Shown: piece after piece, positions 1 through 29,729 of the stretch
How positions within the stretch are numbered: position 1 is the stretch's first letter
Layout of the letters: every line of letters begins with the position of its first letter
The notes under the pieces: model-generated
What the model was told of the DNA's origin: nothing
What the model saw: the letters and a program-made list of their open reading frames with translations, nothing else
Databases searched by the model: none
Source of the DNA: a virus
Lineage: Duplodnaviria > Caudoviricetes
Length of the DNA: 64,000 bases
Direction: 5' to 3' (one strand)
Virus record (IMG/VR): IMGVR_UViG_3300020578_000065
Coordinates: 986 to 64,985 of that record
Program-made: the position numbers and the translations under genes

Positions 1-447
1 ACCTCCCCTAGCAGGCATTACTCCCTGCTGTCCCTGATAGCCCTCTATAGCATGTTTATATAGTGTTTCTTTGCCTTGCGCTATTCTGACTGCCCAAGCA
101 GCTTTGTCATCCGATCTAGGAGCACCCGCAAGACCGTTAAGATGACAAGCAGCGCATACTTGTTCATATACACCTATACCATCTGATGGTATTTCTAAAG
201 CGACTATTACTGCGCCCTCTGCTGCTACTATTGCTAGTGATGAGTTATCCTGACCTGAAACTGCTACACGGGCTATAGCAAGATTGCTTTCGACCTGTTT
301 GATATACTCTTGGTCACTAAATTTGTAGGTTGATTGTGTATTTTTTCCTACTTGCCACGCTACCGCAAACAATAAAATGACAACTACAAAAAGTATGCTT
401 ATTACATAACTAAAAGTATTGAAAAATTTTACGTCTTGACTTTCCAC
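1..447 (-). CDS. Membrane-anchored cytochrome c5 family protein (3' end truncated by window edge; not in ORF track)
   Basis: Manual translation from GTG at 447 (AAGGA upstream): MESQDVKFFNTFSYVISILFVVVILLFAVAW...GIGVYEQVCAACHLNGLAGAPRSDDKAAWAVRIAQGKETLYKHAIEGYQGQQGVMPARGG. It has an N-terminal TM helix, CxxCH at 142-156 and the c5-type GxAGAP...W..R..QG...L..HAI.G...MPARGG signature. Confidence 0.92.
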   Translation of the reverse strand, partial: MESQDVKFFNTFSYVISILFVVVILLFAVAWQVGKNTQSTYKFSDQEYIKQVESNLAIARVAVSGQDNSSLAIVAAEGAVIVALEIPSDGIGVYEQVCAACHLNGLAGAPRSDDKAAWAVRIAQGKETLYKHAIEGYQGQQGVMPARGG

Positions 448-1436: not shown

Positions 1437-4094
1437 TTATTTTTCTGGTAGATAATCTATTGTTTCAGATACAGACTTTTTAGACTTTTTAGGCTTTTTA
1501 TTACGCTTTTTCATATTGATAGCGATTGCTGCTTGCTGTGCTAGATTTGCTGCTTCTAGCATTTTTAATAGTTTTTGCTTTTGCTCAAGTGTAGCATTTG
1601 GTAACAGTGGTTGCATTTTTCGATAAAACTCTTTGAGTTTTTTGCCTTTAGGTTTTGGCATATTGAATTTAACAAGATTGTCTTTTGCTATCTTCATCAT
1701 GTCTAATACTTCTTTATCACTCAATGATAGGCTCATTGAGTCACGCCATATTTTAAACTTTTCTTCCTCGCTCATATTAGGGTCTAGTAATGCGTTACGC
1801 ATAGGTGTTGCTCTTGGCCCTTCGTGATAATCTTTACTACTTGGGTCGCTGCCAGGAGCCTTAGTATCTTGTCTACTCATTACAGTCAAGTTATCTAAGC
1901 CAAATGACTTATATGGTTCTACGCCCGTACTTTTTGCTGGCTTTAACAAATAACCAAATGCTTCTTTTTGATCTGCGCCTACAACTAATGCTACATCTTT
2001 GTAACCCTTACTACCTAAATCAGTCAATACATCGTTGAGTGTAGGTTTATCTTCTGAGGGTAAATTAAATATGTTTTTGTACTTAGGAAACTTCTTTTGA
2101 TACATCTGTAGTTTCATTTCAGGTGGAATAGGATCGTCTTTACCAAAACTGCGTGAAACGATAAAGAATGGTTGTGCGTCTGTACTTTGTGCTTGATGTA
2201 TAACTGCGTTTGCTAATGCGTCATGACCTGTATGACCCATACCACGCCCCCAACCTAACACAGCCTTTTTACCTTGCTGTTCTTTTAGTACGCTTTCTTT
2301 TGGGCTCCATGTTGGTTGATCAATGACCTTAATAAACTGTCCTGGTATATCATAGTTAAACTTGCGTCCTGGATGTGCCTGTGCATAACCTTCTGGTTTT
2401 GTTTGGCGTATGCCACCATGACTCATTTGATTTAGTTGATTGATGAAGTTTGTTTTTTCTCTACTTAATACTTCTATAGCGCCTAGTGTTGCTAGCATTC
2501 CTTCTTTGTCTGCTAACATTGTTTTTGCTTTATTAGCACTTAGATTTGTCTCAGCCCATTGTGGGAAATCACGCATCAATCCATCTCTACGCAAATGGTC
2601 ATTTAAGTAAGAATATAGTTCTGCTGCTGGTTTGCCTAAGCCAGGCTTTGGTTTAAGATAGTTGTCAATTTTTTGTGCGTGTGACTTAATAAATTTTTCA
2701 GCGTTATCAAGCATCTTTGTATCAACTTTCACAGGTTCTTGTACAAATGTAGTACCCTGTACTAATACATCAGATGTGCTTAAATTCTGTGCATCAGGGA
2801 AACGTTGCTCGTCACTTGAGCCTAATGCAGGATAATAACCTGTAGCAGCAACTCCTACTTTCGCTCTAGCAATCTTTTTACCTAAATCACTATCTGCTGG
2901 TACATGAAATTCTGTAATGTTTGGTTGAAAGTCATATGTGTTTGTTTCTTTATTGAGTACAGGCATAGCACTTTGACCATCTGGCTTAGTACCTGGATAG
3001 AATAATAATCCACCTTCAATAAATCCTTGTTTAGGACTAATCTTTTCAAAATATGGCCACAACATAGCAAACTGTTTAGCAAATTTAGCACGTTCTTTAG
3101 GATCACCTCTCCCTGTGCCTAATATAAACTTAGCAACATCTTGTGGTGATTTAGTTAATGTAGGTGCCCCACTAGTTGTTTGTGTTGAACCACGCTTTAG
3201 ATATGCCCATGCATTCTTGGGAATCATCATGAAGTTACCACTTTCATCACGACCCCAATACACTACAGGCATCCCGTCCCACTTTAATTCAAGGCTACCA
3301 CCTGTTGTTGCCATGTCACGCAATCTTTCTATTGCGTGTAGTCCACCATAACTACCATGACTCAATATTAAATCTTCAATATGTTGATACTTACGACCTA
3401 CATCGGTTGCTTCTGAGATTTGGTCTGAAAAATATTTGTCTTTAATTGCTTGATATTTCTCAGGATATTTTTGTAGCGCCTTCATCAACTTTGTAGGATT
3501 GCCCATATCGTCTGCTGATGCTGTTGGTCCTATAATGATTTTGGCAATCTTATCTTTGTCATTAGTCACTAATTCTTTTGTTTCACGATCTACTAAACCC
3601 TTATATGGGCTCATCATTAAACTACTATGACCTTTAATACTACTCATGTTAGCAAGATCAGCCCACATACCATGTAGTGTGCCGCCCTTCATTGTTGGGT
3701 CGGTATAATCGTGTGTATGTAATGGCACCGCTGCTTTAGCATTTTCTACAGCCATTAAATCTACTTGAACAATATCATCACCAGCGCCTGTAGGTATACC
3801 AACGTGTATGCTAACTCCTGTTCGTGCTGCTGGTAATCCTTTATCTTTAAAATAATCTTCTAATGCTTTGCGACTGAGTTTTAATTCTTTAGCAGGAAAT
3901 GCTTTCATTAATTCGCCTGCATCAATCAATGCGTCAATGTCACTACTAATTTCTTTTTTGCCTGCACTACCAATTGGATATAAGTTTATACCTTTTGGTA
4001 AAATCTTTTGTAGGTTTTTTACAGCGGTAAGAAAGTTAGCCTTGTTAATAGGTTTGGCATTTGGAATAACATTGCCGCCCTCTTGTAAAATCAT
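1437..4094 (-). CDS. Multidomain protein: Pol-beta-type nucleotidyltransferase + ligase-like KxDG domain (DUF6267-like) + HIGH-type cytidylyltransferase-like domain
   Basis: GSAGKKEISSDID (Pol-beta G[GS]...DxD); HIEDL...LKWDG (3273-3284), PEGY, IKVID; GRGMGHTGH (2223-2234), VALVVGADQ, RATPMR. Confidence 0.7.
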   Translation of the reverse strand: MILQEGGNVIPNAKPINKANFLTAVKNLQKILPKGINLYPIGSAGKKEISSDIDALIDAGELMKAFPAKELKLSRKALEDYFKDKGLPAARTGVSIHVGIPTGAGDDIVQVDLMAVENAKAAVPLHTHDYTDPTMKGGTLHGMWADLANMSSIKGHSSLMMSPYKGLVDRETKELVTNDKDKIAKIIIGPTASADDMGNPTKLMKALQKYPEKYQAIKDKYFSDQISEATDVGRKYQHIEDLILSHGSYGGLHAIERLRDMATTGGSLELKWDGMPVVYWGRDESGNFMMIPKNAWAYLKRGSTQTTSGAPTLTKSPQDVAKFILGTGRGDPKERAKFAKQFAMLWPYFEKISPKQGFIEGGLLFYPGTKPDGQSAMPVLNKETNTYDFQPNITEFHVPADSDLGKKIARAKVGVAATGYYPALGSSDEQRFPDAQNLSTSDVLVQGTTFVQEPVKVDTKMLDNAEKFIKSHAQKIDNYLKPKPGLGKPAAELYSYLNDHLRRDGLMRDFPQWAETNLSANKAKTMLADKEGMLATLGAIEVLSREKTNFINQLNQMSHGGIRQTKPEGYAQAHPGRKFNYDIPGQFIKVIDQPTWSPKESVLKEQQGKKAVLGWGRGMGHTGHDALANAVIHQAQSTDAQPFFIVSRSFGKDDPIPPEMKLQMYQKKFPKYKNIFNLPSEDKPTLNDVLTDLGSKGYKDVALVVGADQKEAFGYLLKPAKSTGVEPYKSFGLDNLTVMSRQDTKAPGSDPSSKDYHEGPRATPMRNALLDPNMSEEEKFKIWRDSMSLSLSDKEVLDMMKIAKDNLVKFNMPKPKGKKLKEFYRKMQPLLPNATLEQKQKLLKMLEAANLAQQAAIAINMKKRNKKPKKSKKSVSETIDYLPEK

Positions 4095-4650: not shown

Positions 4651-5340
4651 TTACTGCTCTTTTGCTAGAGTATAGGTTTTACCCAACATATCTGAAAACC
4701 ACATGCTTAAAACGTATAGCATTTTCTCATCGTTATATTCTACAAAAAACGACCCGTGCATGTATCTATAGGCATGCCAATTATTAGTAGTAAAAAGATG
4801 ATTTGCTAAACCCCTACTAAAATGTAAAGTTTTATACATATCTACTAGTGCCCTAACATTATCACTAAAGTCTTTTGGCATGCGTCTAGCCTTAAAATAT
4901 GTTCTAAATTTATATTTAGGCTGACGCCTAAAATATAAGGTCTTTGGATCATGGCATATTGCTTCATACAATTTTAGTTGCGGGTCCAAATTATCTAAGG
5001 TTTTAAGTAATTGCAGTTCATTACTAAAGAAACTTACGCAGTCTTGCTGAATTCTTATTACACAGCGTTCTTTTCCAATAAGGGTACGCCACGTTATAAA
5101 TGCAGCGATTTGGTCTATATTAACTTCGTCCCAATATTCTTGCCAATCGTCATCTATCACTCTTATGCCGTACTTAGTACGATTCGTTTCACGCAACTTT
5201 TCCATGCGCCCAATAAATGTAGATATATCGGGCGTATAATAGGTGTAGGACGCCCCTTTGATTTTGCAAACTGCCTTGTACGAAAATTTATTAAAGTATA
5301 GTTTGTTTCTTTTTTCAATTTTCAATTTTGATAATTCCAT
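4651..5340 (-). CDS. Hypothetical protein
   Basis: ORF track gives 4651-5358; ATG at 5340 (MELSKLK) is the likelier start and overlaps the clpA end. Confidence 0.7.
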   Translation of the reverse strand: MELSKLKIEKRNKLYFNKFSYKAVCKIKGASYTYYTPDISTFIGRMEKLRETNRTKYGIRVIDDDWQEYWDEVNIDQIAAFITWRTLIGKERCVIRIQQDCVSFFSNELQLLKTLDNLDPQLKLYEAICHDPKTLYFRRQPKYKFRTYFKARRMPKDFSDNVRALVDMYKTLHFSRGLANHLFTTNNWHAYRYMHGSFFVEYNDEKMLYVLSMWFSDMLGKTYTLAKEQ

Positions 5341-7585
5341 CTTCACCAATACTAGCACTAGTTTTTTGTGTCACATTAAATGTAATATTATCATCATTAT
5401 CTAATATAGCCATAATATTTGCATTATTAATGCGTTCAAAAAGAATTTTCTTACTTAATGGTACTCGAATTAATTCATCAATTTTACGTGCTAGAGGACG
5501 TGCGCCCATCTTAGTATCGTATCCCTTTTCGGCAAGATATTCCACAACTGGTTCACTTAAGTTAAGTGTAATATTGTGTTTCTCAACTAATGCTTTCTTA
5601 ACATCTTCAGTAAATTTAACAACAATCTTCTTAATGCTAAGTAGATCCAACTTTTTAAACTTACATACTTTATCAAGACGATTTCTAAACTCTGGTTTAA
5701 AGAAGTCCTTAAATGCTTTATCATCCTCTCCAGTCTTTTGCAGATCACCGAATCCAATATTGTTACGCTCACTATCAGCACTGCCAAGATTAGTTGTTAA
5801 AATAATTACACAGTTTTTACAACTTACTTCCTTGCCATTACTACCAGTAATACGACCTTCGTCAAGAATTTGCAAGAAGATATTAAAAATATCTGGATGT
5901 GCCTTCTCGACTTCATCAAAAAGCATAATAGCATGTGGGTTTTTACTTAGATCACTAATGAGTCGCCCACCCTGTACTTGACTATCACTAAAGCCAACAT
6001 AACCAGGGGGAGGGCCAATCAAAGCACTCACAGTATACTTTTCGCTATATTCGCTCATGTCATATTTCAATAATGGCATGTCAAGGTTCTTGCTTAATAA
6101 TTTTGCTAATTCAGTTTTACCTGTGCCAGTTGGACCCATAAACAAGAAACTTGCTATTGGCTTAGTTTCATTATTAATACCTGCAAATGAAACGTATATA
6201 CGTTCCAATACATTGTTTACTGCTTCATCCTGTCCATATAATTTGTCTTTAATATTTGTATCTAAACTATTAATGCGTTCAAAGTTATCGTTATTAAGTT
6301 TGTCAGCAGGAACTCCTGTATATTTTTCAATCTCATCGAAAATCATACTTTTAGTAATTTCAATATTCTTGTTACCTTTTACCTTTTGTTTTGCACAGGC
6401 TGCATCAAGTAAATCAATACTCTTATCAGGGTTTTTACGATCAGGAATATATCTTGTAGCCCCATCGACTGCTGTATCAATCGCTTCTTGGCTTATAGAC
6501 ACTTCATGGAAGTCACCCAAACGCTGACTTAAGCCATTAAGTATACGAATAGTACTTTCTTTACTTGGCTCGTCTACAGTAATTTTAAAGAATCTACGCA
6601 TTAAAGCACGATCTTTTTCAAAACTTTCATAGAAATCTTCCCAAGTTGTTGAAGCAATGACCTTAAGTTTGCCCTTTGTTATGGCAGGCTTAATCATGTT
6701 GCTAAAGTCAACACTTCCGTTTGAACTGCCACCAGCACTTTTCATGGTATGTGCTTCATCAATGAACAAGATAGCTTTCTTTTTGGTTGATAACGCATCG
6801 ATTACATTCTTTACCTTTTCTTCAAAGTCGCCGCGATATCTTGATCCTGCAAGTAGTCCTGCTACTTCAAGACTATACAAATCATAACCCTGTAAGAATT
6901 CAGGTACTTCATCTAATACAATAGCCCGTGCAATACCCTCAGCAATAGCAGTTTTGCCAACTCCAGGATCGCCGACCATCAACACATTACTTTTAAAACG
7001 TTTTGCTAATACATGGATAATATTTTCTATTTCTTTGTGACGCCCAATAACAGGTTCAATTTTATCTTCTTTTGCAAGATTAGTAAGATTTGTAGTATAT
7101 TCACTTAGTACTTCGTCTGCTTGACTTTCTGTTAATTGTGTTGAATATTCTCCGCCCTTATATGTTTTTTGCCAGTGTAGTAAAAATTCCTGTCTATTGA
7201 TACCATACTTTAATAAAAAGTAATGCGCATGACTATTGTTTTCAGCAGCAATACTTAAATATAAGTCAAGTGTAGTAACCATGCGACGACCAGTGAACAA
7301 TACTTGTGTAACACTACGATTCATCACACGTTCTAGACTATTGGTTTTACGTGGCTTACAATCTGGATCTCTACTTTTAATTGCGTGAAATCCTGAAATA
7401 TAATTTTGCAGTTCACCAATAAACATATCCGTTTCGCAACCAAATCCACTCAAGCATTTCTTAAATGGCTTGTGTGTAACAAGTGCTAATAGAAGATGTT
7501 CCACTGTAACATATTCGTGATTAAAACTTTTTGCAATGGTAACTGCTTGTTCAATAATATTTTCAATTTCGGGTGAATTTTGCAT
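5315..7585 (-). CDS. clpA: ClpA-type AAA+ chaperone/unfoldase
   Basis: Clp N-domain (HEYVTVEHLLLAL), two Walker A motifs (GDPGVGKT, GPTGTGKT), Walker B motifs (LFIDEAH, LFDEVEKAH), GARPL, IGF loop, no long ClpB M-domain. Confidence 0.93.
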   Translation of the reverse strand: MQNSPEIENIIEQAVTIAKSFNHEYVTVEHLLLALVTHKPFKKCLSGFGCETDMFIGELQNYISGFHAIKSRDPDCKPRKTNSLERVMNRSVTQVLFTGRRMVTTLDLYLSIAAENNSHAHYFLLKYGINRQEFLLHWQKTYKGGEYSTQLTESQADEVLSEYTTNLTNLAKEDKIEPVIGRHKEIENIIHVLAKRFKSNVLMVGDPGVGKTAIAEGIARAIVLDEVPEFLQGYDLYSLEVAGLLAGSRYRGDFEEKVKNVIDALSTKKKAILFIDEAHTMKSAGGSSNGSVDFSNMIKPAITKGKLKVIASTTWEDFYESFEKDRALMRRFFKITVDEPSKESTIRILNGLSQRLGDFHEVSISQEAIDTAVDGATRYIPDRKNPDKSIDLLDAACAKQKVKGNKNIEITKSMIFDEIEKYTGVPADKLNNDNFERINSLDTNIKDKLYGQDEAVNNVLERIYVSFAGINNETKPIASFLFMGPTGTGKTELAKLLSKNLDMPLLKYDMSEYSEKYTVSALIGPPPGYVGFSDSQVQGGRLISDLSKNPHAIMLFDEVEKAHPDIFNIFLQILDEGRITGSNGKEVSCKNCVIILTTNLGSADSERNNIGFGDLQKTGEDDKAFKDFFKPEFRNRLDKVCKFKKLDLLSIKKIVVKFTEDVKKALVEKHNITLNLSEPVVEYLAEKGYDTKMGARPLARKIDELIRVPLSKKILFERINNANIMAILDNDDNITFNVTQKTSASIGEDGIIKIEN

Positions 7586-7593
7586 ATATGTAT

Positions 7594-8394
7594 TTAATTT
7601 CCTTTATTACGTAATATACTATCAACAATATCTTGACTAATGTTATCAGGTATATATGGCTTTAGCAATATTAGTTGGTCACCATATTGCATAGTATTTG
7701 GTATTGGCATACCTTGATTAGTTAACTTAAGTTGCATAAACGGTTGAGTTTTTGCAGGTACATTTACATTTAATACTCTACCTGATATAGTCATAAAATC
7801 AAATTTGGTTCCCACAATCAAATCTAATACACTAATACTATGATTGCTATACAAATTATCTCCTTCACGGTCATACGACAGATGGGGCATAACAACGAAT
7901 TCAACAAGTAATGTTGCATTAGTAAATATATTATCTAGTCTAACTTGTTGTCCACTTTGTATGCCTTTAGGAATTTCTACATTTACAATTTTTTGTCCCT
8001 GAGCAGTATTTAATTTTAACGTTTGGCTACTGCCGTTATATGCATCTAGCAATGAAATTTTAATCTGTGTTCGCATTAACTGTCTTTGGTTTCTTCGTTG
8101 ACCAAATGCATTATTATTAAAGATTTGTCCGAATATGTCATTCATATCCATACCTGGACCCATGTTAAATTGAAATCCTCCAGGGCCCATATGAAATCCT
8201 TGTGGCTGAGGATTATCATATTGTTGACGTTTTTCACTATCGCTTAATGTATCGTAGGCTGTTTGAATTTCTTGGAACTTTGTAGTATTGCCGCCCTTGT
8301 CAGGATGATGCTGACTAGCGAGTTTACGATAGGCTTTTTTGATTTCATCAGGCGTAGCAGTTTTGCTTACGCCCAAAACAGCATAATGATCCAT
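7594..8394 (-). CDS. dnaJ: DnaJ-family co-chaperone (class B, CbpA-like)
   Basis: J-domain with HPD (HHPDKGG), G/F-rich linker, C-terminal domain, no Zn finger; ATG at 8394 preferred over TTG at 8400. Confidence 0.92.
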   Translation of the reverse strand: MDHYAVLGVSKTATPDEIKKAYRKLASQHHPDKGGNTTKFQEIQTAYDTLSDSEKRQQYDNPQPQGFHMGPGGFQFNMGPGMDMNDIFGQIFNNNAFGQRRNQRQLMRTQIKISLLDAYNGSSQTLKLNTAQGQKIVNVEIPKGIQSGQQVRLDNIFTNATLLVEFVVMPHLSYDREGDNLYSNHSISVLDLIVGTKFDFMTISGRVLNVNVPAKTQPFMQLKLTNQGMPIPNTMQYGDQLILLKPYIPDNISQDIVDSILRNKGN

Positions 8395-8412
8395 GCTCAA
8401 ATTTTAACAGTT

Positions 8413-12689: not shown

Positions 12690-13190
12690 CTATTTTAGAA
12701 ACTCCTCAATAGGGAGATCATAATATAGACTATTTATTTTGTGAATACCTATCAAAAATAATACAAAACTTGCTACACTACTACCTCTACCCACACCCCA
12801 AACTATATTATTTTCTCGCATAGTATCGACCAAATATTTAAGATATTGCAATAACGAAAACATATTACGCTCTTGAAATAATAGTAACTCATGTCCTGCA
12901 CGGTGTAATTCGCTATCGGATTTACACTGTTCTAATACCCATTTAGCGATATCCATATTTTTATATTCGTCCGGCATAAGCCAATTTGATTGTTTTTGCT
13001 CATCAAATTTATCTATAGAAATATCCGGGTCATTGTATTTTTGTAGATTTGGAAAATTATCTAAATTTAAAGTATTTGTAATTTCAGTGGCGGTCAAAAC
13101 ATTACGTAACTTAAGTTCAGGATTTTCCAGATAAAGGTCGCAGAGTTCGCCTTCACTATAAATGAATTGTCCATACTTATCTATTAGCAT
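12690..13190 (-). CDS. dnaE: DNA polymerase III alpha (DnaE) fragment, probable split polymerase
   Basis: LQYLKYLVDTMRENNIVWGVGRGSSVASFVLFLIGIHKINSLYYDLPIEEFLK matches the DnaE GxGRGS...L.FERFL region and ends before the PDxDxD motif. Confidence 0.8.
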   Translation of the reverse strand: MLIDKYGQFIYSEGELCDLYLENPELKLRNVLTATEITNTLNLDNFPNLQKYNDPDISIDKFDEQKQSNWLMPDEYKNMDIAKWVLEQCKSDSELHRAGHELLLFQERNMFSLLQYLKYLVDTMRENNIVWGVGRGSSVASFVLFLIGIHKINSLYYDLPIEEFLK

Positions 13191-18603: not shown

Positions 18604-19092
18604 TTACCAACTTGTTGTACCTGAGAACTTAGCCCAGGTATTTGCGTCTACACAAATATATAAGTTTCCACCGATATCATATGCAGCCTCTCCAGCAGTT
18701 CCTGGATCAGTATTTGCTGTTGGCGCTGTTGCCCATATTATGCCAGCAGCACCGGTGGCTCCGACGTTACCTTCAGGCCCAGTTGCTCCCGCACTTCCAG
18801 TGGCTCCTGCTGCCCCTGTAGCACCTGCAGCACCTGCTGCACCAGTTGCTCCCGCACTTCCAGTGGCTCCTGCTGCCCCTGTCGCCCCTGCTGGACCAGT
18901 AGCACCTGTAACATTAGCAAGAATTGATACACCGTTAGCGTAATTATAAACGTTTGCAAAAACACGATTTGCTGTAACATTACCATTAGCATAATTTAAA
19001 TTAGTAATAATATTGCCATTGGCATCAACAACATCGATAGGTGGAATGCCTACTGTGATACCGCCTAGTGAATTAAATGGTTCAGCTGCCAT
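18604..19092 (-). CDS. Collagen-like fibre/decoration protein
   Basis: Continuous Gly-X-Y run ([19 protein letters not shown]...); located directly downstream of the major capsid gene. Confidence 0.75.
18779..18882. repeat. 41-bp exact direct repeat (63-bp period) in the collagen region
   Basis: ccagttgctcccgcacttccagtggctcctgctgcccctgt at 18779-18819 and 18842-18882. Confidence 0.85.
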
Positions 19093-19123
19093 ATGAATTA
19101 TCCTTTATAAGAATATTTATCAC

Positions 19124-19150
19124 AAAAAAGAAAGGGCGCACTAGGCGCCC
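19124..19150 (-). terminator. Rho-independent terminator after the major capsid gene
   Basis: Minus strand reads GGGCGC-CTAGT-GCGCCC followed by TTTCTTTTTT; a late promoter GATAAATA (19114-19121) lies just beyond it. Confidence 0.85.
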
Positions 19151-21523: not shown

Positions 21524-22165
21524 TTATGTAATTTTCAACTCTTTGATGAGGCGTTTAACTTCCTCAGCCAAATAGTTTTGTACCTTCTTGTCGCCCCTTG
21601 TTTCCCTAGCGATTTCTAAAACTTTATGACCATACTTCATATTATGAAGGCTTTCATAAATTGCTTTAGGATATGCGTTAGGTGCGCTTGGCTGTGCGAC
21701 AATATCAACAGTGATTATTTCAAAATCACTTACCTTACCGTTCAAGTCACTTACATTACCTGATCCGCGACTTGAAACGCCTAGTTTAACACCACTCTCC
21801 AACATAGTCTTTACAAGTTGACCCATTGGAGTTGGTAAAATCTTTAGTTTGCCGTAGCCGTTTGGCCCATCCATCCACATGCTTGTAATCATGTGACTTA
21901 CACGATCTAAATTAATTTTTAGATCATCTGGGTGATCGACTTCGCCTAATACTGAGTAACCTTCTGTAATCTGCTTGTTTAACGTTTCAACGGCAGTCTC
22001 AATTTCAGCAACGGGATAAACACGCTCATTTGCGTTCTTTACCCCGCCCTGAATAAAGATGCCCTTCATATAGAGGGTCTTTAGGTCGCTGCCCTGTTCA
22101 CTAACAGATTCAACGACCATGTTTGCTCTATCAAACGTTAAGTGTTCCTTGAGATACAAAGCCAT
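21524..22165 (-). CDS. gp21: Prohead protease (gp21-like)
   Basis: GIFIQ...NANERVYP, GEVDHP, SHMI, LGVSSRGSG, DIVAQPSAPNA. Confidence 0.95.
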   Translation of the reverse strand: MALYLKEHLTFDRANMVVESVSEQGSDLKTLYMKGIFIQGGVKNANERVYPVAEIETAVETLNKQITEGYSVLGEVDHPDDLKINLDRVSHMITSMWMDGPNGYGKLKILPTPMGQLVKTMLESGVKLGVSSRGSGNVSDLNGKVSDFEIITVDIVAQPSAPNAYPKAIYESLHNMKYGHKVLEIARETRGDKKVQNYLAEEVKRLIKELKIT

Positions 22166-28904: not shown

Positions 28905-29729
28905 ATGAATACTAATCCTTTAAAACAGTATTTTCGTCGCCCTAGCGTTTATTTAAAACTTCCTAGCGGGGGTCAAGGATATCCAGAAGGTTCTATCACA
29001 CTTAGTGATTCAGGTGAACTTCCTGTCTATCCAATGACCGCTATAGATGAAATTACTAGTAAAACTCCAGACGCACTGTTTAATGGTACTGCTGTTGTTG
29101 AAATTATTAAAAGTTGTGTACCAGATATTAAAGATCCATGGGTAATAAAGAATATTGATATTGATAGTATCTTAATTTCTATACGTGCTGCTTCAGGAGC
29201 AGGAAGTATAGATGTGAACACTAAATGCCCAAAGTGTTCAAATGAAGCCATGTATGGTGTTAATTTAGTGAGCGCACTTAATACTATGAAAAGTGGCGAT
29301 TATAATAAAGAACTATCAATAAATGATTTAAAAATTAAGTTTAAACCGTTAGATTATCGTGAATTAAATCGATCTAGTTTAGAACAAATGGAGATACAAA
29401 AACTTTTTACATCAATTGAAGGCACTGAAGATATAGCACAAAAGAATAAGTTAACAGAACAAGCATTACGTGGCCTTACTGATTTAACTATGGAACTAGT
29501 TTCTAAAGCAATAGATTATATAAAAACTCCAGAAACCATAGTGTCTCAGCCTGAATATATTTTAGAATTTTTAAAGAATGTAGATATGAAAGATTATGTA
29601 ACTATACGTGATTATAATGCTAGCCTTCGCTCACAGGCATCTTTAAAACCACTCGATATAAAGTGTACGGAGTGTGGGAACGAGTTTGAACAACCGTTTA
29701 CACTAAACATGTCTGATTTTTTCGGCTAA
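28905..29729 (+). CDS. Baseplate hub assembly/tail chaperone (T4 gp26-like)
   Basis: NPLKQYFRRP..Y.KLPS.G, YPMTAIDEI, two CxxC motifs (CPKC, CTEC), C-terminal DFFG. Confidence 0.8.
   Translation: MNTNPLKQYFRRPSVYLKLPSGGQGYPEGSITLSDSGELPVYPMTAIDEITSKTPDALFNGTAVVEIIKSCVPDIKDPWVIKNIDIDSILISIRAASGAGSIDVNTKCPKCSNEAMYGVNLVSALNTMKSGDYNKELSINDLKIKFKPLDYRELNRSSLEQMEIQKLFTSIEGTEDIAQKNKLTEQALRGLTDLTMELVSKAIDYIKTPETIVSQPEYILEFLKNVDMKDYVTIRDYNASLRSQASLKPLDIKCTECGNEFEQPFTLNMSDFFG

Follow-up and report, generated by a model that had tools for sequence, protein, structure and literature searches.

This analysis concerns a gene on the minus strand of a 64,000-nucleotide stretch of phage DNA (the window; positions 986 to 64,985 of the IMG/VR viral record IMGVR_UViG_3300020578_000065), whose product was found to join three unrelated nucleotidyltransferase folds in a single polypeptide of 885 amino acids. 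These comprise an N-terminal domain resembling family-X polymerases (N module), a middle domain of the family DUF6267 that is probably of the covalent ligase type (D module) and a HIGH-motif domain resembling nicotinamide mononucleotide (NMN) adenylyltransferases (C module). The reading favoured here, to which a probability of about 45% is given, is that the gene encodes a fill-and-seal nucleic-acid repair polyprotein that is probably packaged in the phage head and cleaved. The first-pass annotation, made from the sequence alone, had proposed the union of three such folds from the motifs GS...DID (residues 42-54), KWDG (271-274), EGY (568-570) with K589, and HTGH (621-624). All of these were present in the one polypeptide and this core claim was upheld, with the catalytic residues conserved in homologues of each module. 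When the folds were checked domain by domain, the Pol-beta type and the HIGH type were clear, while the ligase type was indicated only weakly by score, although by consistent matches.

The full-length AlphaFold2 model of the protein, built on an alignment of 81 sequences, had a mean predicted local distance difference test score (pLDDT) of 89.3 and a predicted template modelling score (pTM) of 0.52. Taken together, these values indicate three confident domains whose mutual arrangement is uncertain. Residues with a pLDDT below 50 were confined to positions 1-6, 224-232, 604-606 and 864-885, and the protein is thus predicted to consist of three independently folding modules with disordered linkers between them. 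With Pfam only DUF6267 was identified (residues 237-558, E 1.9e-13), and PHROGs gave 'cytidyltransferase' families at residues 603-852 (phrog_3041, E 1e-16) and an unnamed family at residues 237-288. The whole protein had no match in NCBIfam, and its search against PDB sequences returned noise only (ribosomal protein S8, E 0.16). The Foldseek list obtained with the full-length model was filled by PolX matches, which masked the other domains. Folds were also searched with VIA-align against 48,161 representatives, a tool for which a Z below 8 can reflect a common arrangement.

The fusion itself is genuine and not an artefact of assembly, since the exact 885-residue sequence represents five member sequences on two contigs, approximately 25 further clusters at 74-94% identity have equal length, and the same order of modules (N-D-C) was found in 41 of 266 relatives sorted by domain hidden Markov models (HMMs). 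The reading frame is open throughout with the catalytic residues intact, and the motifs are not chance strings, as they are conserved among relatives.

The N module is predicted to be a minimal family-X polymerase-like domain of the kind seen in African swine fever virus (ASFV) Pol X. In a Foldseek comparison with the PDB, all but one of the listed rows were Pol mu, Pol lambda, TdT or bacterial PolX (E approximately 1e-4). VIA-align matched the module to the palm and thumb of Pol beta (3k75_D, Z 10.6, 178 residues aligned, root-mean-square deviation (rmsd) 4.1) and to ASFV Pol X (5hr9_A, Z 10.3, rmsd 3.1, 154 of 176 residues aligned), with the alignments to Pol beta starting at chain residue 98-143 or thereabouts. 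The RNA uridylyltransferases (TUTases) and MenT were found to align to the palm only (Z approximately 8). Among 15 N-domain sequences, with identities down to 26%, residues G42, S43, S50, D52, D54, Q110 and D112 were invariant. Comparison of the N-domain profile with PDB sequences gave the terminal uridylyltransferase Tailor at an E of approximately 1, aligned over the GS/DxD motif, which is suggestive and not significant. No match to the N domain was found among 50,697 isolate phage records, and hhalign detected no relation (0.4%) to PHM2_161, the gene upstream of the DUF6267 gene in phage P-HM2. Free-standing N-domain proteins at IMG/VR loci were observed to carry an additional C-terminal amphipathic peptide (..EWFRKTLDIIK), which is absent from the fused forms.

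The middle module is probably a ligase-type nucleotidyltransferase, as judged from its predicted fold and the order of its conserved residues. Modelled separately with AlphaFold2, it reached a pLDDT of 92.5 and a pTM of 0.87. With VIA-align, ligases or a capping enzyme made up 12 of the 13 top rows and 27 of the 50 rows listed (best Z 6.6), and in a second look, against pdb_via, all 50 listed rows were ligases, led by the Naegleria gruberi RNA ligase NgrRnl (6vtg_A, Z 7.3, rmsd 4.6, 179 residues aligned) and followed by TbREL1 (5.9), Trl1 (5.9), T4 Rnl1 (5.7) and DNA ligases (at most 5.3). The best Foldseek match was the ligase domain of Trl1 (E 3e-3).

The candidate nucleophile lysine lies in the motif K271-W-D-G, which was invariant in one alignment (A1), at least 90% conserved among 56 DUF6267 sequences with identities down to 25%, and also present in the cyanophage homologue S-SZBM1_141; in the same 56 sequences E568, G569 and K589 were invariant. 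Further candidate motif positions are E360-G361 (strand 357-365), strand 395-399, E568-G569 followed by strand 569-572, and K589 (strand 587-590). The assignment of the ligase fold is strengthened because K271-W-D-G, E360-G361, E568-G569 and K589 are conserved and fall on successive strands in the same order as ligase motifs I, III, IV and V, and it is from this order and these strand positions that E568-G569 and K589 are tentatively equated with motifs IV and V. The module was also found to possess an invariant GRKYQHxED motif ahead of candidate motif I and a helical insert of approximately 100 residues (about 459-555) holding the invariant K547, and to lack an OB domain. A literature search on DUF6267 found no paper.

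The C module is predicted to be a HIGH-motif Rossmann-type nucleotidyltransferase closest to NMN and nicotinic acid mononucleotide (NaMN) adenylyltransferases. VIA-align placed it with NadM (2qjo_A, Z 11.2, rmsd 3.7, 163 residues aligned), Mycobacterium tuberculosis NadD (10.9), archaeal NMNAT (1f9a_A, 10.8), Escherichia coli NadD (1k4k_A, 10.7), PPAT (4nah_A, 10.2) and NadR (9.2-9.3), with a resemblance also to the catalytic domain of ArgRS (10.0) and to the tRNA-modifying enzyme TmcAL (9.2). The motif H621-T-G-H624 comes after strand 609-616, and in 25 C-domain sequences H621, G623 and H624 were at least 90% conserved. In the same sequences the G, P, A, T and R of GPRATPMR (759-766) were invariant, with SASKMR in its place in cyanophage homologues; this motif may be the equivalent of the ISxTxxR motif of the superfamily. 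By hhalign the C domain was related to the cytidyltransferase of P-HM2 (98.2%) and to other cyanophage 'cytidyltransferase' genes (97.4% and 96.6%), and no relation was found to PHM2_164 (0.15%). The cyanophage homologues carry a GRxxPxxxGH-type motif, which is that of NMNAT. Pfam CTP_transf_like (PF01467) had no match at E ≤1 in the fusion protein and none in 25 close C-domain relatives. Members of phrog_3041 do reach this family (Melnitz_18 at 27.4 bits with a cut-off of 21; HTVC008M gp130 at 20.4 bits), which provides an indirect link only. Comparison of the C-domain profile with PDB sequences gave a single low-complexity match, to huntingtin.

Relatives were gathered in two large protein searches, which yielded 170 and 898 relatives at E ≤0.001, the latter figure being representatives for the whole protein. 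The 266 relatives sorted by domain HMMs are a biased sample of the best matches. They comprised C alone or with other extensions (112), D-C (82), N-D-C (41), N-D (14), N (8), D (7) and the permuted order D-N (2), and by the same HMMs the homologues of 70% coverage were D-C forms. A scan of IMG/VR identified 129 N-domain relatives. At the best 80 of these loci the arrangements were separate adjacent N, D and C genes (41), N beside D-C (15), N beside D (13, many cut by the contig end), the full N-D-C fusion (10) and N-D (1, cut by the contig end), so that N was a separate gene beside the other modules at 69 of the 80. The survey of relatives that the first-pass annotation had called for thus found separate neighbouring genes in the majority of cases. 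As the separate genes are adjacent and co-oriented in most relatives, and as other fusion combinations exist, the three modules form one functional unit whose parts work together.

DUF6267 was found in 466 isolate phage records, nearly all of cyanomyoviruses, with the addition of Melnitz and HTVC008M, and in isolate phages its gene adjoins a C-type gene. Extra domains fused or adjacent to the modules in relatives are HD/HD_4, NT5C, a Zeta-toxin/AAA_33-type kinase with a weak match to a polynucleotide-kinase PHROG, a dCMP-deaminase-type domain, GNAT and DUF6321. These accessory domains are end-healing or nucleotide-handling enzymes. In HTVC008M, the product of gp129 (4751-5413), which starts MIPFILKEG, is itself a P-loop kinase of the Zeta-toxin/AAA_33 type with the weak polynucleotide-kinase PHROG, and its gene lies between two C-type genes of the pelagiphage cluster.

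The case for packaging begins with the N-termini of the modules. Where the modules exist as free genes, a similar short leader was found whichever module leads, ending in hydrophobic-x-Glu and resembling the capsid-targeting sequence of T4. Free D genes start with MKINEFLTEA or MKPSDFLTEA, free C genes with MLLRQLFEA or MRLRNLFEN and free N genes with MRIAEILNEGG or MKLFEGGN; in the T4 record, IPII and IPIII start with MKTYQEFIAEA and IPI with MKTFKEF. The first ten residues of IPIII are described as a capsid-targeting sequence and gp21-type proteases as cleaving after Glu (PMC9026906, PMC5694885), and Alt is presented as an enzyme carried in the T4 head and processed at both ends (PMC9026906).

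Sequences of this kind recur at the junctions of the fusion protein. Linker 1 is conserved in spite of its low pLDDT, and its site corresponds to the leader with which free DUF6267 genes begin. Ahead of the D anchor, [LIVFM]xE was present at 51 of 53 internal junctions and in 70 of 74 N-terminal leaders, and ahead of the C anchor it was present at 124 of 125 internal D-to-C junctions. Hydrophobic-x-Glu sites of the fusion protein include E5, E228, E605, E877 and E884, and five of its 11 such sites lie within the 40 low-confidence residues (binomial p 6.9e-5).

A position-specific scoring matrix (PSSM) was built from 37 leaders of the D type and run over 409 open reading frames (ORFs) of T4. 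Seven of ten known T4 gp21 substrates were placed in the top 30 (p 5.8e-7), namely gp24 (1st), gp22 (3rd), IPI (10th), gp21 (14th), Alt (18th), IPIII (29th) and IPII (30th), with gp67, gp23 and gp68 ranked 68th, 115th and 158th. Within the fusion protein, the site in linker 1 was the top position for the matrix. The ORF ranked 2nd of the 409 is one of 54 codons (T4 record 18966-19130, minus strand) that starts MKTFKEFIKED, a sequence similar to the IPI/IPIII leader, and it may be an unrecognized small head cargo.

The gp21-type protease gene of the phage lies 17 kb from the fusion gene. In addition, homologues of one module have been found in virions by mass spectrometry: the 'cytidylyltransferase' gene 140 of S-SZBM1 and its neighbour, gene 139, are given among 30 proteins of purified particles (PMC9146016), and gp154 of S-CREM2 is listed as a virion protein (PMC10665884). 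The S-SZBM1 gene 140 product and S-CREM2 gp154 were confirmed here as homologues of the C module, and S-SZBM1_140 starts with MRFRQFIIEA.

The helical, lysine-rich tail ends in a signature, D[YF][LIV]xEK, that was identified at the C-terminus of 123 of 235 C-containing relatives, whatever their length or domain content, and in none of 31 without C. A hydrophobic-x-Glu site precedes it in 74 of the 123. The tail might act in docking or be a C-terminal propeptide. T4 gp43, gp55 and gp33 end in [ST]LDFL, tails that bind the clamp, and these bear a faint likeness to the [ST]xD[YF]L of the DYLxEK tail. Clamp binding was set aside as an explanation of the tail: the late sigma factor of the phage, a gp55 homologue, has no such tail, and a sliding clamp gene was not found in the 65-kb record. 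The positions of the modules and motifs are given in the table.

Table. Positions in the window of the fusion gene, its predicted modules and motifs, and the head protease gene
Feature	Position in window	Strand	Basis or remark
Three-module fusion gene	1437..4094	-	Single open frame, 885 amino acids plus stop
N module, residues 1-223	3426..4094	-	AlphaFold2, VIA-align and Foldseek: predicted minimal family-X palm and thumb
G42-S43 ... D52-I-D54 signature	3933..3971	-	Invariant in N-domain alignment
D112, candidate third catalytic carboxylate (VQVD)	3759..3761	-	Invariant in N-domain alignment
Linker 1, residues 224-232 (QISEATDVG), candidate site I-S-E228/A	3399..3425	-	pLDDT below 50 yet conserved
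Middle module (DUF6267), residues 233-603	2286..3398	-	Pfam, AlphaFold2, VIA-align and Foldseek: probable divergent covalent nucleotidyltransferase fold
K271-W-D-G, candidate ligase motif I with nucleophile lysine	3273..3284	-	Conservation
E568-G569 (candidate motif IV) to K589 (candidate motif V)	2328..2393	-	Invariant
Linker 2, residues 604-607, candidate site V-L-K-E605/Q	2274..2285	-	pLDDT below 50 at 604-606
C module, residues 608-833	1596..2273	-	VIA-align, phrog_3041 and hhalign: predicted HIGH-motif nucleotidyltransferase
H621-T-G-H624 (HxGH) inside GWGRGMGHTGH	2223..2234	-	Conservation
G759-PRATPMR766	1797..1820	-	Conserved; candidate counterpart of ISxTxxR
Tail, residues 834-885, helical, lysine-rich, ending in DYLPEK (1440-1457)	1440..1595	-	pLDDT below 50 at 864-885
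gp21-type prohead serine protease	21524..22165	-	Peptidase_S77 E 4.1e-28, phrog_207 E 1.7e-60

On the favoured reading, the polymerase module would fill short gaps or add a few nucleotides at a 3' end, and the ligase module, adenylylated at K271, would seal the nick remaining in duplex nucleic acid. The substrate of the latter would most likely be DNA, in which the 3' side may carry a ribonucleotide. The C module would transfer AMP onto a phosphate, either making or regenerating a dinucleotide cofactor for ligation, such as nicotinamide adenine dinucleotide (NAD+), or acting on the broken end. Less surely, the fusion protein may enter the prohead in the manner of T4 internal proteins, where the gp21-type protease of the phage could cleave it after E5, E228, E605 and perhaps E877, and the repair enzymes may exit the head with the DNA and would therefore be present before the expression of any phage gene. 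A fuller version of this scheme is rather unlikely to hold as a whole. According to it, the packaged polyprotein is cut at its two junctions and the three ejected enzymes mend the nicks and gaps left by nucleases of the host ahead of any phage expression, the NMNAT-like enzyme recharging the adenylyl donor (for example NMN and ATP to NAD+) so that sealing proceeds despite the NAD+ depletion of abortive infection, and DUF6267 is the long-sought ligase of T4-like cyanophages.

A number of observations weigh against the favoured reading, both on its enzymes and on packaging. For the middle module the ligase scores are weak, the best Z of 7.3 being under the caution value of 8 for the tool and the Foldseek E being 3e-3, and the nearest folds are RNA and not DNA ligases (7.3 versus at most 5.3), with the OB domain absent. 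When Pfam was run on 56 DUF6267 members, no ligase family was present among the 25 families listed of 51 matched, and hhalign of the DUF6267 alignment against T4 Rnl1 and T4 DNA ligase gp30 gave probabilities of 0.1-0.2%. The N module lacks the 8-kDa dRP-lyase and fingers (HhH) domains of cellular PolX; as these are likewise missing from ASFV Pol X, the match is to the minimal form of PolX. The role given to the C module is a guess, since its substrate is not readable from the fold. More generally, the activities of the modules are predicted ones, the choice of DNA over RNA as substrate included.

As to packaging, the fusion protein has a leader of its own of only five residues (MILQE, a possible short propeptide) before the conserved GGN, and a leader is missing altogether from the DUF6267 proteins of P-HM2 and S-SZBM1. 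The main text of the S-SZBM1 proteome paper (PMC9146016) makes no mention of S-SZBM1_141. The junction motifs could have been inherited from a gene fusion without being in use as cleavage sites. A first PSSM, in which two leader registers were mixed, ranked UvsY and T4 DNA ligase 1st and 2nd, and the test with the D-type matrix is post hoc because that matrix was built after the mixed one had failed. Neither UvsY (MRLEDLQEEL) nor T4 DNA ligase gp30 (MILKILNEIA) is a known head protein, and their high scores with the mixed matrix call for caution in taking the leaders as packaging signals.

The strongest competing account of the protein is one without packaging, in which it serves replication and repair inside the cell. 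DUF6267 would then be the nick-sealing ligase that is 'missing' from cyanophage-type T4 relatives, the PolX-like domain would trim gaps at Okazaki junctions or sites of damage, and DYLxEK would dock the protein to a partner such as the sliding clamp. This account is doubtful, although several observations suit it. Four complete Kyanoviridae genomes that encode DUF6267 (P-HM2, Melnitz, HTVC008M and S-SZBM1) had no match to PF01068, PF01653 or PF09414 at E ≤0.01 in a scan for which T4, as the control, was positive with PF01068 and PF09414. A review from 2010 states that homologues of the g30 ligase were not found in cyanomyoviruses and that distant ones may be unrecognized (PMC2984593). The prevalence of DUF6267 among cyanomyovirus isolates and the faint likeness of the tail to the [ST]LDFL ends of T4 proteins are also in keeping with such an enzyme, and leader-like N-termini occur on unpackaged enzymes too, as the start of T4 DNA ligase demonstrates. 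It is more difficult to accommodate the C homologues in purified virions of two cyanophages (PMC9146016, PMC10665884) and the T4 capsid-targeting-like leaders common to all three modules, and the docking proposal meets the points on the sigma factor and clamp gene given above. Work inside the cell would in any case be compatible with packaging. An account by artefact, in which three genes were joined through an error such as a frameshift or misassembly, or in which the gene is a decaying pseudogene, is scarcely credible: the modules are indeed separate genes in most relatives, but the full fusion was found at 10 of 80 independent viral loci, and the identical proteins on two contigs, the clusters of equal length and the intact frame and catalytic residues argue against it.

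Two further accounts change the substrate. As an RNA heal-and-seal kit, the protein would reverse cuts that anticodon nucleases of the host, or other ribonuclease-based defences, make in tRNA or mRNA, with N rebuilding 3' ends and the middle module acting as an RNA ligase. The best neighbours of that module are RNA ligases without OB domains (with the Z values given above), its BFVD matches outside the DUF6267 family are phage RNA ligases, and its sole named neighbour in the Atlas has PF09414 on 48% of members, at a score of 0.77 that makes it a lead only. HD, HAD-type NT5C and Pnk-like P-loop kinases, added in relatives as domains or as neighbouring genes, are enzyme types of RNA end healing, and the likeness of the C module to TmcAL and ArgRS points the same way. 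This account is nevertheless unlikely: the N module fits family-X DNA polymerases over both palm and thumb (Z 10.3-10.6) and RNA-specific nucleotidyltransferases over the palm only (approximately 8), the gap in Z between RNA and DNA ligases is approximately 2 on weak scores, and no tRNA genes were found within the window. If the set served mainly to handle nucleotide cofactors, for example rebuilding NAD+ against NAD-depleting defences, its polymerase-like and ligase-like folds would act on small molecules, which Pol X and ligase folds are not known to do. Such a role is very improbable. It would agree with the closeness of the C module to NMN and NaMN adenylyltransferases including NadM and NadR, with C alone being the commonest form (112 of 266), and with the pairing of C with a P-loop kinase in relatives, which recalls NadR, where an NMNAT-type domain is paired with a kinase. 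However, no NAMPT-like or Nudix partner was seen beside the fusion gene, and Pfam places C in no NMNAT family.

The functions suggested in the first-pass annotation (tRNA or RNA repair, cofactor synthesis or counter-defence) covered so wide a range that they could hardly be wrong. Being polymerase-like, the N domain is more suggestive of filling gaps in duplex nucleic acid than of acting on tRNA, and RNA keeps some likelihood as a substrate because the nearest folds of the ligase module are RNA ligases. That annotation was borne out in part; the T4 capsid-targeting-like leaders, the protease-type junction sites and the DYLxEK tail, which are the most informative features, were not included in it.

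Several known systems come close to the fusion protein. In PgVPolX of Phaeocystis globosa virus, a PolX and an NAD+-dependent DNA ligase are fused, and the protein is reported to fill a gap and seal the nick biochemically (PMC5537341). Both it and the fusion protein hold a family-X polymerase and a ligase, or probable ligase, in one viral polypeptide. PgVPolX has a full Pol-beta-like core with an 8-kDa lyase domain and a LigA-type ligase and is carried by an algal giant virus, whereas the fusion protein, carried by a bacterial phage, has the palm-thumb minimum, a DUF6267 domain that no sequence method identifies as a ligase, and a third, NMNAT-like module.

ASFV Pol X (174 amino acids) is, like the N module, a minimal palm and thumb of family X. 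It acts together with the ASFV DNA ligase in base-excision repair, and the virus thus resembles the phage in pairing a polymerase with a virus-encoded ligase. In ASFV, however, the two are separate genes, the ligase is a recognizable ATP-dependent one with an OB domain, and there is neither a HIGH-type module nor a leader of T4 type.

With T4 the likeness lies in the cargo: IPI, IPII, IPIII and Alt share with the module family the short N-terminal leaders ending in hydrophobic-x-Glu, and both phages have a gp21-type protease. There is no polymerase, ligase or adenylyltransferase among T4 cargo proteins, and internal cutting of a multi-enzyme polyprotein cargo is not described for T4. The fusion protein itself is a candidate for packaging.

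The Naegleria gruberi RNA ligase (Rnl5-type, nick-sealing) and the ligase domain of fungal Trl1 share with DUF6267 a KxDG core and the lack of a C-terminal OB domain at 10-12% identity. DUF6267 differs from them in its helical insert, which lies between candidate motifs IIIa and IV, and in its GRKYQHxED motif. Finally, NadM, the archaeal NMN adenylyltransferase and NadR have the Rossmann-type HxGH fold of the C module (Z 10.8-11.2), which is unlike NadM and NMNAT in matching neither Pfam CTP_transf_like nor NCBIfam NMNAT and in its motif GWGRGMGHxGH.

The record from which the window is taken comprises 64,985 bases and was rated 19% complete by CheckV, which suggests a phage genome of several hundred kb. 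Around the fusion gene were found T4-type genes, namely those of the major capsid protein gp23, portal gp20, the gp21-type prohead protease, clamp loader, late sigma factor, SbcCD-like nuclease, PhoH, a ClpA/B-like ATPase and DnaJ. The source is an uncultured giant T4-like phage from water. The ATG of the fusion ORF lies 1 nt beyond the stop codon of the ORF that precedes it. The T4 late-promoter word TATAAATA was not enriched, with eight occurrences against 15 expected from shuffles and none close to the fusion gene; from this count, the late promoters of the phage may differ from those of T4.

Several other ORFs of the window were of note. A chaperone pair lies immediately upstream of the fusion-gene operon (5315-8400, minus strand), consisting of a ClpA/ClpB-like double AAA+ ATPase of 756 amino acids (phrog_4871, E 2e-231) adjoining a full DnaJ with J domain and C-terminal domain. 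The window edge truncates an ORF (1-447, minus strand) that encodes a cbb3-type cytochrome c domain (Pfam E 4.1e-7) and may be a phage-borne auxiliary gene for respiration. An ORF of 166 amino acids (12690-13190, minus strand) had a partial match to the NTPase domain of DNA polymerase III alpha only (Pfam E 3.7e-11) and may be a gene fragment or part of a split gene. Directly downstream of the major capsid gene lies that of a collagen-repeat protein of 162 amino acids (18604-19092, minus strand). A baseplate-hub-like protein (28905-29729, plus strand) has a C-terminus, ..MSDFFG, similar to the LDFLFG end of T4 DNA polymerase.

The folds concerned are known ones. The literature search found no description of DUF6267 as a ligase-like family, of a mini-PolX in phages, or of the two joined to an NMNAT-like enzyme with T4-type cargo signals; it returned nothing relevant on phage PolX and ligase as virion cargo and nothing on the DUF6267 family in connection with the missing DNA ligase or Okazaki joining of cyanophages. 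If the assignments hold, DUF6267, a family present in 466 isolate phage genomes and hundreds of metagenomic clusters, would gain a fold and a testable chemistry, and marine T4-like phages, which are without a recognized DNA ligase, would have in it a concrete candidate. The minimal PolX would be new for phages and possibly useful as a compact enzyme, and in view of the PgVPolX precedent it is of interest that a probable ligase is here paired with an NAD-synthase-like enzyme. Should packaging prove true, polymerase and ligase repair enzymes would join the known cargo of virions, and the fusion protein would be the first multi-enzyme polyprotein cleaved by a head protease of the T4 type.

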